NCBI GenBank assembly: GCA_039545335.1 | Contig: BCIN01000001.1 | Location: 3,413,136 to 3,477,135, forward strand | Origin: Kondoa subrosea | Lineage: Eukaryota | Direction: 5' to 3' | Length of the DNA stretch: 64,000 bases | Part shown: positions 19,223 through 30,370 of the stretch, in pieces | Layout of the letters: each line of letters opens with the position of its first letter | Position numbering within the stretch: position 1 is the first letter of the stretch | The notes under the pieces: model-generated | Told to the model about the DNA's origin: nothing | The model's input: only the letters and a program-made list of their open reading frames with translations | The model's database searches: none | Position numbers and translations under genes: made by a program

Positions 19223-21440
19223 TCATTGTATACCTCGATAAGACCCGCTCAAACTTCTAGGTCCAGCAGGTCTTCTTACGCTACCCAACCGACCGGTATT
19301 GCCAGCAGGTCCATCTTCTTCATCAACCGAACCTAAACTCCACCTATTGTTGTTGTTGTTAGGGTTTGCTCTATTCGGATTGCGCGGTGGTAATCCAGGT
19401 GCGCCGGGGTATTGTCCACTATTCCTATTGCCTCTGGCTCCTACAAGTGCAGCATAAGGAGTAGCACCATCTCTATAACCTCCTCCGTTTGTGTCGGAAG
19501 TAGAAACAGGTGAGTAAGCTTGAGAGGAGGTTGAAACGGGTGCATAAGCTTGAGACATTTGTTGAGGAGGTGGCGGATTATCGGAATAAGGTGCAGCGAA
19601 AGGATCATCAGATTCTACCGGTCGATAATTTCGGGATGGAGCTTCATCAGCTGAATGATAGGATCGAGATAAAGCTGTTGATCTTTTGTTTCGTCTACGA
19701 AAACAGAATGCCAGTAGACCGAGAAGGATTAACAATCCTACAACTCCACCAACTACGCCGCCTTTGGAAAGTATCATGTACATCAGTTATGTTACATTTA
19801 CAGAAAGGTCGAGAGAAACGAACCGACTATTGCTCCTGTTCTACTTTTACCTTGTGATTTCATCAGAGCAGCATTAGCTTCGGCTAACTCTGCATTCGCT
19901 TCAGCAGCAGCAAGGCTAGCTACACTAGCGCTTGATAAAGCTTGAGAATAAGATTGAAGCAAAGCTGAATCCGTTGCCGTTTGAGCAACGGAAGACCAAC
20001 TTTCAGCTACTGATTCAGCAGAGATTGCAGCTATGGAAGCTCGAGAAGCTGCTGAGGTTAAGTTTGAAGTTTGACCTGCTATAATATTTGTAGCTTGCGA
20101 TCGAGCGGAGGAAGATAATTGCGAGATTGAACTTTGTAAGGATGATAATGAGGATAAAGAAGTATAGAGAGCTGGGTTAATAGAGGAAGAAGGTAGATTA
20201 TTGATGATTCCTGCTCCGACACCTTGGATCGAATTGGCTGACTGACTTGCTTGACTTGCGATTGACAGCAGCGAAGAAGCTTGACTGAGCGATGATACTG
20301 CATCAGCTGGAAGAAGTGCTGTTGCACTTGTAATACTAGCAGCAGAAGCAGCCTCAGTGGATAATGTGCCAACAATTGGGAAAAGGCTTGAAGCGGAAGA
20401 CGGTACTGCTGAAGTGCTGCTTGAAGCTAGACTCAATATAGGAGCAGAAGAAGTTGAGGTAGTCAAAACAGCGCTGCCGGAGATACTGGTAGTAAGGGGA
20501 ATTAAAACGCCAGCTAATGATGCAGAAGAGCTTGTCGTGGAACTGCTAGACGAAGAGGAGCTTGCAGAAGAGGAAGTTGATTCCAAGACGCTCAGAACAC
20601 TTGACAGGGAGGATGAAACCGAGCTAGAGCTTGAACTTGCACTACTTGCTGTAGTTGTTGTAGAAGCAAGAACAATTGTTGTAGGCGTAGCACCAAGAGC
20701 AGGCGCAATAAGAGGTAATCCACATCCACCTGATCGAGGTATAGAGTTGGCGGGAAAGATACCTTGCACTACTGGTGGATTGACGATTTGTTGCGTGCAT
20801 GAACAAATATAAGGTGTTGGGCCGTTTGTTTGAAGAGTGTTGTCGCAGGTATAGGATTGACCAAACCAAGAAACGGCATTGATGTTATCTTGAGATAAAC
20901 CAATCATTTCCTATACGAACGTTTGTCCATCAATCCTGCTCAATGATTTGAGAGACGAACTTACAGTACAAGGCACTGGATTTGCTAAAGAAGCATCGTA
21001 GAGGAGGATATCGCAATTCTTTGATGTAGGTCTCAGAGCATTAGTCTGTACATTACTGTTCCCTCATGCCAGCGATAAGCTTTCCCTTGATTAGGTGATA
21101 ATGGATCATTCACTGACCTGCAAGGAGCTATTGTTTGCAGTGTACTTGTTCCCTCTATTGCACATTCATATGTCCCTATAGAGACAGTCATTCCATTACT
21201 TGGATTACGAGCTACAGCAGGCTGCGAGTTGCCATCACATGTTCTAGGACCAGATCTGCCACAACGAAGATTCTGAGTCGGCAGTTGAATGTAGACTGGG
21301 ATACTTACATTCCAAAGTAGACATCCTGGATAGGTATAGCTGCGTTGCCAGTATTCTGGAAATTGCATGATTCTCCATTACATTGATTCGAGTCGAAGAC
21401 ATAGCTAGACAAATCTCCAGAGCATGTGGAGATATCGTCT
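19223..21440 (-). CDS. Ser/Thr/Ala-rich single-pass cell-surface protein with a Cys-containing N-terminal region (sensor/mucin-like)
   Basis: Cys-rich exons (DISTCSGD..QCNGESCN, YECAIEG, YTCDN..YICSCT), a long Ser-rich stalk, TM GAIVGGVVGGVVGLLILLGLLAFCF followed by RRRNKR, cytoplasmic tail; first exon not resolved. Confidence 0.7.
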
Positions 21441-25608: not shown

Positions 25609-26969
25609 CTAGTAGCAAGATTTGCCGTTCCAAAGCTTATTGATAAGTTTGCAAGAAGCTTCGGTCCAGATGTAGTTTGGGTCGGGTACGCAAAGGAACA
25701 CGATAAGATCGTAACCCTAGTAGAGAAATATGCTGATCAGTCAATGGTAGAGACAAAGCAGAGAGTGAAGCTTACTGGAGGGCAGCTAGTCTGCTTCTCT
25801 TTGCAGCACTTGTCAGAAGTGGACCAGATCCAGCCAGATTGGCAAGTAGGGTTGACGCATGACTTTTTGTCACTGCTCAAAACTTGACCCTATGATCGAG
25901 GAATATTGAATTCCAAGCTGTAGAATTACAGGGACGAGCTTACATTGTAGCAAGTTGGAGGGTTCTGAACGCAGCACTTGGATGAGGTAGACCAGGACCA
26001 TCCAGATTGGCAAGTAGGGTTGACGCAAGCAGTTTTGGCGCTGTTAAGAACTTGGCCCTGTCCAACAGAGAATTCAGTCAAAACGTACGCAACAGGACTG
26101 GATTAAAGAGACTAACATTGTAGCAAGTTGGTGGAGGGTTCTGAACGCAGCACTTGGAAGAGGTAGACCAGGACCAACCAGATTGGCAGGTAGGGTTGAC
26201 GCAGGCAGTTTTGGCGCTGTTAAGAACTTGACCCTGTTTAAACGAGAAGGAGAAGTCAATCGAACTGTTTGTAAAAGACCTGGATCAAAGGAACTAACGT
26301 TATAGCAAGTTGGTGGAGGGTTCTGAACGCAGCACTTGGAAGAGGTAGACCATGACCATCCAGATTGGCAAGTCGGGTTGACACAGGCAGTCTTGGCGCT
26401 GTTAAGAACTTGGCCCTATTAATGGCAAAATCAGCGCTTAAATTTCGACTAGATCGAGGTCGATCGAACTGACATTGTAGCAAGTGGGAGGGTTCTGGAC
26501 GCAGCAATGAGAGGTAGTGGACCAGGACCAGCCAGATTGGCAAGAAGGGTTGACGCATGCAGTTTTGGCGCTGTTGAGAACTTGGCCCTGTGCATGAAAC
26601 AACAACAGTCAGACCCAATAGATACAGCAAAAGGAAGGACTGACATTGTAGCAGGTAGGATAAGTAGGTTCGACACAGCACGACTGATCCCAAGACCAAA
26701 TTTGGTTCTGCACAAGGCGTATCAGGTTGTGTATGACAAGACAGCGAAAGATCAAAAGACATACACCGCAGCTAGGAGGAGTGCCATGAACACAGGCCAA
26801 CTTGAAGAGGTCCCATGTCCAGTACTACTGAAATTGTTAGCTCTGAACCTGATATAAAAGCTTTGTCATTCACCTGAGGGCAGAGACCAAAAGTACGCTT
26901 CTCAACATCAGCAGCAGGAGCGGCTAGGACTGAGGCAGCCGTAATAGTGAGAAGAGCGATGAGCTTCAT
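25609..26969 (-). CDS. Secreted Cys-rich tandem-repeat protein, 300 aa, 9 exons
   Basis: Exons 26969-26874, 26824-26765, 26707-26645, 26587-26474, 26415-26299, 26233-26117, 26057-25944, 25889-25776, 25716-25609 join with GT-AG introns of 49-65 nt into one open frame: signal peptide MKLIALLTITAASVLA, pro-region ending EKR, five GQVLNSAKTACVNPTCQSGWSWSTSSKCCVQNPP(P)TCYN-type repeats. Confidence 0.9.
25776..26587 (-). repeat. Five tandem 114-117-nt repeat exons separated by divergent introns (period ~170-180 nt)
   Basis: Recurrent plus-strand blocks ccagattggcaagtagggttgacgca and gagggttctgaacgcagcactt. Confidence 0.95.
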
Positions 26970-27059: not shown

Positions 27060-27065
27060 TTTATA
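27060..27065 (-). promoter_or_regulatory. TATA box of the Cys-rich repeat gene
   Basis: TATAAA on the minus strand ~90 nt upstream of ATG 26969, followed by a pyrimidine-rich leader. Confidence 0.55.
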
Positions 27066-28060
27066 TTGTGCGGTGAGTACAGCTGAAGACCGACTCGGAT
27101 CTCCGCACGATCGGTCAGAAGCATCTGGATCTGCAAGGGCTGAGACATCTGTGAGACAGACGCTTCCGCACATGCACAACCCCCAAAGCCCATTGGAGTG
27201 CAAGGAGCGGGACGGCAGATCGCCCAAGGTCCCTACAATTTTAGTCCACGATCGACAAGCAAAGACATCTGAGAGACAGTTCTTATTTCTGTGTAGGCTG
27301 GTCCACGATTCGAGGTCTTTTGAGGCGCTAGTTGAAGACAGTCATTGAAAGGATCTTCGGAGTCCGAGGACTAGCCGCGATGGTGCCAAGGCGGAAGGCC
27401 GCAGACGGGATTTGAGGATTAAGATTCAGTAACATTTTTTGTTAGCGAGTATTGCATAATTTAGTGCTCGTAGAGCTCTCCATTGGCCGGAAGTGTTGCA
27501 CAACGCAAGCTAGGATCGAACACTACTGCTGACTTCCTTTTGTCGCAATGATCAACGCAGAAGGTTCCACAAAGAGATTGACATGTCAGTGCTGTTGCAC
27601 TTTGCTATTTCCACTAATTTACAAACTGCCGAACAGAAGCCTAGTATACTTGTGTATCAGCAAATGTACAACGAATCAGGAGAAGCAATACTACGCACTT
27701 TTGGACGATTTAGTGGTCCCGTGAAAAACAGCTCATAATTCGGTAATTAGGTCTGAAGGAGTAAAGATAGCACAGCAGAAGATCAAACAATAACGCGACA
27801 GCATCAAAAGACAGCAGAAGCACTGGCAGGAGTGAACTATTACTATTGAAGCTCAAAGATCTCGTTTGGCTCGCATTTTTCCAAGTACGTAGGGCACTGC
27901 GCATGTTCGTGTACGCTGCGTGTACGCTAGAGATAGAGTAAGGGGCTTGTTAAGCACTCAGATTGAAGCTGAGCAAGGTGTAATGTCATTTTTCTTCTTT
28001 GGACATGCTCGTCAACGTGTCTCGTGGATTTACCCTTCTGCATTTGATACCTCGCAGTAC

Positions 28061-30370
28061 ATGAGCAGTCTTGATACTGCCGCCGCAACCAGCAGCTCAA
28101 CCGAATCGCTCTTGCACAAGCGCAAGTCAACGCGGTCTGACCAACCAGAGCAAATGCTTAGAAACGGTGGAGCTCGCTCGCCTGCTAAAGTAACGTTGGA
28201 TGACGATGATACGGCTGAGATGGGTCAAGGAAAGCTAGTCTTTCAGCAAAAGGAACATGATTATCCACATTCGAATGGCAAAGAAGCTAGTGCCAGCAGC
28301 GGGTCTGACAAGCAGGCTGAGTCATTGAGCAATATGAATGCGAAGGACAAGAGGGCTGTGATATTGCTGGTCATTCTCTGTTGGTATTACGAGTTGTGCT
28401 GGCGAGATCTCGGACTGAACTTCGCGTCGTGCATTCAGATTTATTGCAAGGCATCCCTGTTGGCCTAGCATTCGGCTCAATACCGTATTTGTTACGTGCT
28501 CGACTCTCCTACTCGCAGATAGGGCTCTTCAGTTTAGCTTCCTATCCTTATTCTCTCAAACTACTTTGGTCACCTATTGTGGATTCGTGCTATAACCCGA
28601 AATGGGGACGCCGGAAGAGTTGGATCGTTCCTGTGCAATTGATAGTGGGGTGTTTGCTTTGGTGGTTGAGCAATAATGCCCAACAATTGATAGAAAAGGT
28701 CAGCTAGTCCGTCTTCAGTTGCTGACAAAGACTGAAAGATATACAGGAAGAACCGAATGTCAAGCTGATAACAGCCATCTTCTTCACTCTAGTCTTCTTT
28801 GCAGCAACACAAGGTTAGTGATCTCGTGTCGTTTTGCCCTTGATGCGTTATCTCAATCCTTAACCCAGATATTGCCGTCGACGGCTGGGCTTTAACGCTA
28901 CTTTCCAAAGCAAACCTCTCCTATGCTTCAACAGCGCAAACTGCAGGCCTCAATACAGGCTATTTCCTCTCATTCACCGTTTTCCTCGCTTTCAACTCTG
29001 TGGAATTTTCAAACAAGTACTTTAGACCTTCAGCTACACCTCTAGAATATCCTTTGGTCACACTTGCTGGCTATTTGAGATTCGCTGCCATGGCTTATTT
29101 GGCTGTTACGGCATACTTGGTTTTTCTGCAGAAGGAGGTTCGTCAAGAAGGCCTCAATTTGAGTCTGATCTCATCATAGTACCGTCCACGAACAGGATGC
29201 CCCAGAACACGACGAATCCGAGATGGGTATACAGAAAGTCTACTCGATCATGTACTCAATATGCAAGCTTAAACGCAAGTCGTTCCTCAAGCTTTAACAT
29301 GATAATCACTGATCTTACAAGGAAAACAGACGTACAATCTTTTCTCGTCGTTCACCTTATAGCGAAATTAGGAACAGCTACTTCCGATGCCGTCACTTCA
29401 CTCAAACTACTCGAAAAGGGTTTATCGAAAGAAGATCTGGCCTTAGCTGTATTGATTGACTTTCCTTTCCAAATCATCTTTGGTTACCTTGCTGCAAGTT
29501 GGTCAAATGGTGATCGACCACTGAAACCCGTTTGCTTTTCATCTACACCTCATGTGAGCTTGGCTGATCTAGGACAATCGACAGTGGTATACTGCTATGT
29601 GGTTCAGATTGGGCTTCGCAGTCGTGTCTATGCTCCTCATATCGAATTTCCCTTCCGGACCAGTATCGACTTCTTTCCTTATTTTGGTCATATTCACCAC
29701 TGTGCTGGGAAGCTTCGCCTCGTACGTTGATGTCGCCTTTTGACCGTTCATGGTCTTACAGAGAAGACTTGATTTGTACAGAACCGTACAATTTGTCGGT
29801 ATATCAGCCTTCCATACCCAAATAGCGGACCCAGTAATCGGCGGAACCTACATGACAGTCAGTTCCCTTCCATTTTCCCATACTCTCGTGTGTGCCTCTG
29901 TACTGAGTGACGTGCATCCGTGAACAGCTCCTGAATACCGTCAGCAATTTAGGAGGCACTTGGCCAAGATATTTCGTTCTTCAAGGTGTTGATTATTTCA
30001 CTATCGCAAGCTGTAGAATCAAGGAAGAATCAAGCGAGATCATTATCAAAGGTTCGGAATTATCCTTCTTTAGCTGACTGTAGCTGAGAGAAATCCATCC
30101 GCGAACAGCACATGAATGTGTTAGCGATAAAGGTAGAGCTATGTGTTCTGAAATAGGTGGGAAATGCGTGACGGATCGAGATGGGTATTTCATCGTTTCT
30201 GGAACTTGCGTCGTGCTGGGCGCGGCGATTTTGGCCTTCTACATTTGGCCAATAGCTCAAAGATTAAATGGTGCGTTTTGTCCGAGGCCTCTTTTATGGG
30301 AACTTCGCTGATGCTCTTTGATCTGCGTAAAGCTTTGCCGAAGTCTAGCTGGCGTGTAAAACTAGATTAG
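28061..30370 (+). CDS. Acetyl-CoA transporter AT-1/SLC33A1 family (Acatn, MFS)
   Basis: LLQGIPVGLAFGSIPYLL, SLASYPYSLKLLWSPIVDS, GRRKSWIVPVQ, AATQDIAVDGWAL, ADPVIGGTYMTLLNTVSNLGGTWP. Confidence 0.92.

Follow-up and report, generated by a model that had tools for sequence, protein, structure and literature searches.

A nine-exon Kondoa subrosea gene for a secreted-type, disulfide-rich hairpin repeat protein, very probably shaped by tandem exon duplication

A 64,000-nt stretch of contig BCIN01000001.1 from Kondoa subrosea (assembly GCA_039545335.1, positions 3,413,136 to 3,477,135 of the forward strand; the whole stretch is called the window below) carries, on the minus strand at 26969..25609, a row of short cysteine-rich exons that a sequence-only reading had described as one gene for a modular secreted protein, with repeat exons that splicing might include or skip at will. 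The locus raises the question whether such a row of small exons is a genuine gene and, if so, how its repeats arose, whether they are spliced selectively, and what the product may do. Our analysis leaves us highly confident that the gene and the hairpin-array architecture of its product are real, and origin by tandem exon duplication under purifying selection is very probable. The explanation that we favour overall, and that we hold to be somewhat likelier true than false, is that this duplicated-exon gene yields a constitutively spliced, secreted rod of hairpins that would bind glycans multivalently.

Rebuilt from the window sequence, the gene consists of nine exons and eight introns. All eight introns run from GT to AG, lie in phase 0 and measure 49-65 nt, and every exon length (96, 60, 63, 114, 117, 117, 114, 114 and 108 nt) is divisible by 3. 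The coding form of 903 nt, including the stop, gives a product of 300 amino acids (aa) with 34 Cys. Each of exons 4-8 codes for 38-39 aa, of which 5 are Cys, TCYN closes exons 3-7 and G opens exons 4-9, so that the exon count, the phases, the product and the repeat layout described earlier were all reproduced. Exon 2 uses the second AG of CAGTAG as its acceptor because the first AG would leave TAG in frame, and the colinear sequence of a homologue, P0001, backs this junction. Tracks based on open reading frames (ORFs) miss the gene because no exon exceeds 117 nt; this omission had been pointed out before, and the protein encoded in the window is indeed absent from the protein collections searched. 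We conclude that a genuine gene lies here, one of filamentous-ascomycete type with nine exons that had not been called before.

The homologue was found with a profile built from the five repeat exons (A1), which was run against 1.84 billion cluster representatives with E-values up to 1e-3. Eight proteins were obtained, among which the single match with E < 1e-10 was P0001 (294 aa, E-value = 1.1e-41), the sole full-length relative among these representatives. The window protein and P0001 have 156 identical residues in 253 aligned columns and are colinear all the way from the start Met to the C-terminus; exon 1 is colinear with an inner Met and the signal-like segment of P0001. The alignment crosses exon junctions 1/2, 7/8 and 8/9 gap-free, and upstream of junction 2/3 it has a gap of two residues. 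The DNA of P0001 (L001) is a 1091-nt contig of metatranscriptome type, with one uninterrupted ORF, a leader and a trailer. Because L001 is intronless and colinear with the spliced product, it supports the splice junctions in the window. Across 134 orthologous codons, the nonsynonymous and synonymous divergence between the two genes (dN and dS) was 0.30 and 1.35, and these values, together with the colinearity of the homologue, indicate that the protein is under selection. P0001 begins 38-39 residues ahead of the Met that is aligned to the window start (L001 66-182); this extension has no window counterpart and is probably a translated 5' leader.

Analysis of the product revealed a simple plan. 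Residues 2-16 are hydrophobic (mean Kyte-Doolittle hydropathy 1.97), and the signal peptide and its cleavage site were assigned by eye and hydropathy. A pro-region follows, a nine-residue stretch after the hydrophobic N-terminus that ends in KR. Downstream of these parts there are solely Cys-closed loops, which amount to 14 C-x10-12-C hairpins in the window protein and 12 in the homologue. Two types alternate along the chain. The A-type hairpin is C-x12-C, with G-Q-V-L past the intron site, and the B-type hairpin is C-x10/11-CC, with an aromatic-x-aromatic dyad in its first half (W-S-W in the window protein, W/Y/F variants in the homologue). All 6 B hairpins of the window protein have kept the dyad, and the homologue's have kept it as W/Y/F, though adjacent residues change. 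The A loop is interrupted by the intron three residues past its first Cys, which puts exon units and structural units out of register. Within the repeat unit the Cys spacing is 12, 4, 11, 0 and 6/7, which gives five Cys per A+B pair, and CC doublets occur six times in the window protein and five times in the homologue.

The homologue is built alike, with a signal-like N-terminus, alternating C-x12-C and C-x10/11-CC hairpins and a C-terminal module, but its mature part has 29 Cys, against 34 in the window product, and it has three G-Q-type units plus one divergent pair where the window protein has five units. Since 29 is an odd number, at least one Cys of the homologue cannot pair within the chain. 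Trp, Ser and Thr are abundant in the mature window protein, which has 16 Trp among its 275 aa and is mildly basic (isoelectric point about 8.3). Neither an N-glycosylation sequon nor a hydrophobic C-terminal tail, a tail of the glycosylphosphatidylinositol (GPI) type or a wall-linkage motif was found in the window protein. Judged by its sequence, the product is a secreted-type, disulfide-rich chain of hairpins without an anchor, and its signal-type N-terminus, five tandem units and lack of a membrane anchor are those of the descriptive class of fungal secreted repeat-containing proteins.

The remaining seven matches of the A1 profile resemble the window protein in nothing but the short A-hairpin motif, of which they carry copies separated by Pro-rich linkers. 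Among them is P0002 (738 aa, with an Lcl_C domain), and several show cEGF, DUF4215 or partial CBM_14 matches. We take the motif in these seven proteins as a widespread minimal disulfide hairpin rather than as a sign of kinship. In P0002, which is apparently bacterial, residues about 466-556 hold a repeated 17-residue Cys-closed hairpin that is one residue off the A hairpin of exons 4-7; a minimal hairpin may have evolved here by striking convergence, or the two proteins may share an old module.

Other searches added little to P0001. A word-indexed protein search with exon 6 against longer proteins gave no candidate, word-indexed searches with P0001 (487 candidates) and with alignment A3 (603 candidates) gave nothing beyond P0001 itself, and local tblastn found no second copy in the window. 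A metagenome scan with a single-protein query obtained two loci, L001 and L002, from 32 pattern matches. The last 431 nt of L002 match L001 at 99.5% (from residue ~196 on) and its upstream 610 nt are unrelated; the break is preceded by AG, at a position that differs from the intron sites of the window. We read L002 as a chimeric or unspliced contig and used it for no inference. Of the named clusters in the ESM Atlas, the best reached a score of 0.86 (Ascomycota, DUF5874 in 97% of members), which we treat as a lead only; the unnamed clusters gave no usable match, P0001 has no Pfam row for DUF5874, and a literature search for DUF5874 found nothing.

To what, then, do the repeats owe their likeness? 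Among exons 4-7 there are 22 variable sites, of which 19 are at the third codon position, 3 at the first and 0 at the second. Exons 5-7 differ in 12 codons, and all 12 differences are synonymous (P-value = 1.3e-8, binomial, against a neutral nonsynonymous share of 0.78). In pairwise comparison of these three exons, dS is 0.28-0.48 and dN is 0; exons 5 and 6 encode the identical protein in spite of nine codon differences. The earlier proposal that the copies differ mainly at third positions, and that they are duplications under selection at the protein level, is borne out by these counts, and the codon comparison identifies the repeats as being under strong purifying selection as protein. Gene conversion was considered as the source of the protein identity and rejected, as it would also have wiped out the synonymous differences in the 12 codons of exons 5-7.

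The repeat introns gave alignment identities of 0.57-0.69, against 0.53-0.60 for shuffled sequences (mostly z < 3). They are near the shuffle level because a dS of 0.28-0.48, together with indels, suffices to bring them there. It had been claimed that the introns barely align and that only introns 5 and 6 share their first bases. The poor alignment and the shared 5' ends of introns 5 and 6 were both confirmed, but this pair is not the only one. Introns 3-8 (25717-26644) share their 5' ends pairwise over 6-7 bases, with GTCAGT in introns 3 and 4, GTTAGT in introns 5 and 6 and GTAAGCT in introns 7 and 8, and introns 7 and 8 align with z = 4.0 over shuffles. This pairwise likeness hints at duplication in blocks of two units.

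Comparison among units and with the homologue allows the expansion to be placed in time. Exons 4-7 have mutual protein identities of 92-100%, against 50-71% to any unit of the homologue, which means that exons 4-7 expanded, or were last homogenised, within this lineage. Exon 8 has 63% protein identity to exon 6, and its best partner among the homologue's units is the last one (66% identity), which makes exon 8 the old unit. By the same comparison, the expansion of exons 4-7 is dated as younger than the split from the organism of the homologue (dS 1.35). There is a contrast between scales here: units 2-4 are letter-identical as protein, yet the whole protein diverges fast between species (dN 0.30).

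A search with Tandem Repeats Finder (TRF) detected the array at 25942-26591 with a period of 182 bp, 3.7 copies, 81% matches and a score of 759. The array very probably grew by tandem duplication of this 182-bp unit of one exon and one intron, and purifying selection has then kept the copies near-identical as protein as synonymous sites and introns drifted. All phases are regular because duplication leaves the frame intact solely for symmetric phase-0 exons. The literature matches listed did not contain the phrase tandem exon duplication in fungal cysteine-rich proteins.

For the shape of the chain, structures were predicted with AlphaFold2 (AF2). The model of an 80-aa two-unit piece reached a predicted local distance difference test score (pLDDT) of 86.4 and a predicted template modelling score (pTM) of 0.57. 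In this model each B hairpin is made of two strands of 4 residues, the first of which holds the aromatic dyad, and both aromatics are predicted to face one side because the dyad sits in one strand as aromatic-x-aromatic. The full-length model of P0001 showed a regular run of two-stranded hairpins over the repeats. Searching PDB by sequence with P0001 (E-value up to 10) gave 0 matches, and the A4 profile, an alignment of repeat units, gave 2 chance-level rows (aspartic proteases, E-value = 0.24). The statement of the sequence-only reading that the family could not be recognised agrees with these results, since no characterised full-length match was obtained in Pfam, PDB or profile searches.

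Whether the repeat exons are spliced selectively bears directly on what the gene makes. The sequence-only reading saw a splice-tunable scaffold, in which exons 4-8 are cassettes and skipping of any subset gives shorter in-frame proteins with intact loops. Each skip would indeed be frame-neutral and would rejoin TCYN to G, the splice sites of the repeat introns are alike, and protein-identical units would make isoforms that differ in length only. However, a tandem exon duplicate survives only if the exon is phase-symmetric. Because any surviving tandem exon duplication requires symmetric exons, the phase-0 symmetry carries no information on splicing, and the phases are explained by the mode of origin of the array. 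Moreover, L001, the homologue's only full-length transcript-like contig, keeps every unit within one ORF. In the part of a 23-species study of fungi considered here (PMC3925392), exon skipping accounted for 3% of alternative-splicing events and intron retention for 61%, and its authors argue there for intron definition in fungi. Introns of 54-65 nt fit that mode, under which each would be removed independently and a failure would lead to retention, not to skipping. The idea of interchangeable, splice-tunable exons is therefore not supported, and we regard it as very unlikely. Constitutive splicing to the 300-aa product is probably the main form, which is a prior and not a result. Retention of intron 2 is the only plausible in-frame variant, as this is the sole intron of the eight whose retention would leave the frame open, the other seven leading to a stop or a frameshift; its readthrough is visible as a 71-aa stop-to-stop ORF at 26609-26824.

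For the function of the constitutively spliced product, the favoured mechanism is as follows. The chain of hairpins would form an extended extracellular rod. Its six aromatic dyads, facing the same side, would form a periodic ladder for a repetitive polysaccharide (chitin, glucan or plant wall) that could be bound multivalently, and one extra Cys per A+B unit, provided by the CC doublet, could be used in cross-linking. The aromatic hairpins found in hevein and in CBM14/tachycitin bind sugar, and by this analogy a glycan-binding, wall- or matrix-associated function is possible, although as a separate claim we hold it to be doubtful.

A number of results weigh against this explanation. The EKR pro-site that had been read as Kex2-type is present as KR at residues 24-25, the sole dibasic site of the window protein, but it is not conserved, for the homologue has EER at the corresponding place and no dibasic site anywhere. 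A strictly periodic structure leaves no way for all five Cys of a unit to pair, and the model does not account for the extra Cys. The AF2 model of full-length P0001, from a single sequence, is weak (pLDDT 61.2 and pTM 0.23, with about 75 across the repeats), and the input of the two-unit model (A4) was an 8-row alignment of units from both proteins, mostly internal repeats. Foldseek and VIA-align gave no clear match for either the full model or the piece. The best Foldseek rows were the EGF arrays of LRP2 for the full model (E-value = 1.4e-3) and a row with E-value = 0.3 for the two-unit piece; for the TNFR-type domains the Foldseek probability did not exceed 0.66. With VIA-align the full model was matched to HVEM (Z 2.6, root-mean-square deviation (rmsd) 3.8, 46 aligned residues) and TNFR2 (Z 2.6, rmsd 4.2, 57 aligned), and the piece to 3ij2 (Z 2.0, rmsd 5.0, 54 aligned). 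These weak rows are recurrently disulfide-module rods (HVEM, TNFR2, CD27, RANK, LRP2, Pfs25) or fibre shafts, and they describe shape, nothing more. In Pfam, the nine window exons searched singly gave no match at E-values up to 10 (0 of 9), and every match of the homologue sequences is under its cut-off. The link from dyad to sugar, finally, is drawn by analogy with hevein and CBM14 hairpins.

Other explanations were also weighed. The rod might be a rigid, ligand-free stalk, a structural spacer whose unpaired Cys in each unit polymerises it or ties it to wall proteins. The five Cys per 38-39-aa unit and the 29 Cys in the mature part of the homologue are consistent with such a cross-linked matrix, as are the repetition of the A-hairpin motif in bacterial surface-type proteins such as P0002 with its Lcl_C domain, and the occurrence of fibre shafts and of EGF or TNFR rods in the low-scoring fold results. 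However, the window protein has neither a GPI-type tail nor a wall-linkage motif, its Cys count is even (34), so that all could pair within the chain, and a mere spacer needs no strict conservation of the aromatic dyads; we consider this explanation unlikely. A lineage-specific effector or antimicrobial protein, with a protein or membrane target in another organism, would also be secreted, Cys-rich, basic and Trp-rich, would be taxonomically very restricted (one full-length relative among the 1.84 billion representatives) and would evolve fast between species (dN 0.30), and repeat-containing secreted effectors are a known class according to the part of a review considered here (PMC4617103). 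Against this, 300 aa exceeds the size of typical small effectors and identical repeats suggest a periodic ligand, not a single protein target, which makes such a role quite unlikely.

A more far-reaching joint reading starts from the finding that units 2-4 are protein-identical (0 of 12 variable codons nonsynonymous, dS 0.28-0.48) despite the dN of 0.30. The rod might then act as a functional ruler that matches a periodic ligand or stacks on itself, with unpaired Cys welding the polymer or the wall, and its reach would be set by a unit number that varies through exon skipping within the cell or unequal recombination between strains; we hold this combination to be very improbable. That the locus is non-functional, a decaying repeat or a chance arrangement, would agree with the absence of its protein from the collections searched. 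It is nevertheless scarcely credible, given a 300-codon frame that is intact over nine exons with canonical splice sites throughout, a colinear homologue on a transcript-like contig, and dN/dS well under 1 both between species and between repeats. The secreted hairpin rod with multivalent glycan binding thus stays our preferred explanation.

The gene adds an undescribed and very narrowly distributed family to the fungal secreted Cys-rich repeat proteins and is a clean example of a gene that is invisible to ORF-based tracks. One repeat per exon, with the intron inside a disulfide loop, is unusual for a filamentous fungus. Its copies, identical as protein and diverged at synonymous sites, offer a compact system for the building of extracellular rods by tandem exon duplication and for unit number at the strain level. 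Should the aromatic ladder prove to bind wall polysaccharide, the hairpin would count as a new, minimal carbohydrate binder, and if the odd Cys does cross-link chains, the product would be a new matrix-forming protein. Were the ruler reading true, it would mean a fungal length-coded extracellular architecture made from frame-neutral repeat exons, in a fold family without a solved member.

The coordinates of the gene and its parts are listed in Table 1. The TATAAA box upstream of the ATG is a putative promoter element, and the C-terminal module of exon 9 has no hydrophobic tail.

Table 1. Features of the nine-exon gene, in window positions
Feature	Position	Strand	Remarks
TATAAA box	27060..27065	-	96 nt upstream of ATG, read from sequence
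Exon 1, 32 aa	26874..26969	-	ATG, hydrophobic signal peptide, short pro-region ending in KR, first Cys
Exon 2, 20 aa	26765..26824	-	Remainder of hairpin 1 and beginning of hairpin 2
Intron 2, 57 nt	26708..26764	-	In frame, stop-free, 19 codons including two Cys
Exon 3, 21 aa	26645..26707	-	W-x-W hairpin with CC, TCYN end; 86% identity to homologue
Exon 4, repeat unit 1, 38 aa	26474..26587	-	5 Cys
Exon 5, repeat unit 2, 39 aa	26299..26415	-	5 Cys
Exon 6, repeat unit 3, 39 aa	26117..26233	-	5 Cys
Exon 7, repeat unit 4, 38 aa	25944..26057	-	5 Cys
Exon 8, divergent repeat unit 5, 38 aa	25776..25889	-	5 Cys; positional counterpart of the homologue's last unit
Exon 9, 35 aa and TAG stop	25609..25716	-	C-terminal module, 3 Cys; 69% identity to homologue C-terminus
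Tandem array of 182-bp exon-plus-intron units	25942..26591	-	Exons 4-7 with introns; TRF

The neighbours of the gene in the window were also inspected. Downstream, 19223-20910 on the minus strand holds a 370-aa frame that is mostly of Ser/Thr/Ala-rich low complexity after a short Cys-containing head; the next frame in this region has a weak match to TM_ErbB1 (single-pass transmembrane-juxtamembrane) with E-value = 2.8e-4, under the cut-off. By its composition, this neighbour looks like a mucin-like surface or sensor protein. The upstream divergent neighbour at 27893-29730 on the plus strand matches the acetyl-CoA transporter family (Acatn, E-value = 9.7e-21). In other parts of the window, matches of the usual eukaryotic housekeeping sort were obtained (GEN1_C, PseudoU_synth_1, PfkB, and Chromosome_seg with DUF4210), and no tRNA genes were found in the window.

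To place the protein among known systems, the sub-threshold Pfam rows were compared with its hairpins. For P0001 the sole row was DUF4215, with 16.5 bits where the cut-off is 27. For the two-unit piece of L001 the rows were DUF4215 (20.8 against 27 bits), CPL1-like (13.7 against 27.4 bits, E-value = 0.066) and CBM_14 (12.7 against 22.1 bits, E-value = 0.15), and cEGF reached 11.4 and 12.9 bits on L001 pieces against a cut-off of 26.6. There was no CPL1-like row for P0001 or for the window exons. DUF4215 (PF13948), cEGF (PF12662) and CPL1-like (PF21671) resemble the window protein in having C-x2-G-x-x-hydrophobic-x5/6-C hairpins in tandem in secreted or surface proteins, but the window protein differs from them by alternating two hairpin types, with a CC doublet and an aromatic dyad.

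CBM14 is a six-Cys domain of about 50-65 aa. The A hairpin is similar to the C-terminal hairpin of the CBM14 profile (PF01607, positions about 21-49 of 53), and the bacterial proteins with the A-hairpin motif gave partial CBM_14 matches, of which a single one, in P0008, exceeded the cut-off (28.7 bits). The window units, however, have 5 Cys in 38-39 aa, and no CBM_14 row was obtained for P0001 at E-values up to 1. The resemblance to CBM14 noticed earlier accordingly holds for one hairpin, the generic C-x2-G-x9-C, and does not extend to membership of the family, given the score of the L001 piece and the lack of a match in any of the nine exons. The hevein motif is a triad, S-x-aromatic-x-aromatic, within an eight-Cys domain. 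The S-G-W-S-W of the window protein mimics this triad, but nothing more is alike, and no hevein/CBM18 row in Pfam was found for the window exons, P0001 or the L001 pieces.

In overall form, the TNFR cysteine-rich domains and EGF arrays are likewise elongated ladders of small disulfide-pinned hairpins; they differ in Cys spacing, and Z values of at most 2.6 indicate a common arrangement at most. Repeat proteins processed by Kex2 carry KR or RR between repeats, but in the window protein the single KR lies ahead of the first hairpin. The secreted fungal repeat proteins Ecp6, Hum3, Rsp3 and Cin1 are also made of tandem repeats, and some of them bind wall polysaccharides multivalently; the text of the review that treats them, in the part considered here, has neither "exon" nor "alternative splicing" (PMC4617103). 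The window protein has no sequence relation to this class, and its gene differs in having one repeat per exon. By these comparisons of sequence and profile, the window protein and its homologue, which have no Pfam model or solved relative, are an undescribed small family of the known secreted Cys-rich repeat kind.

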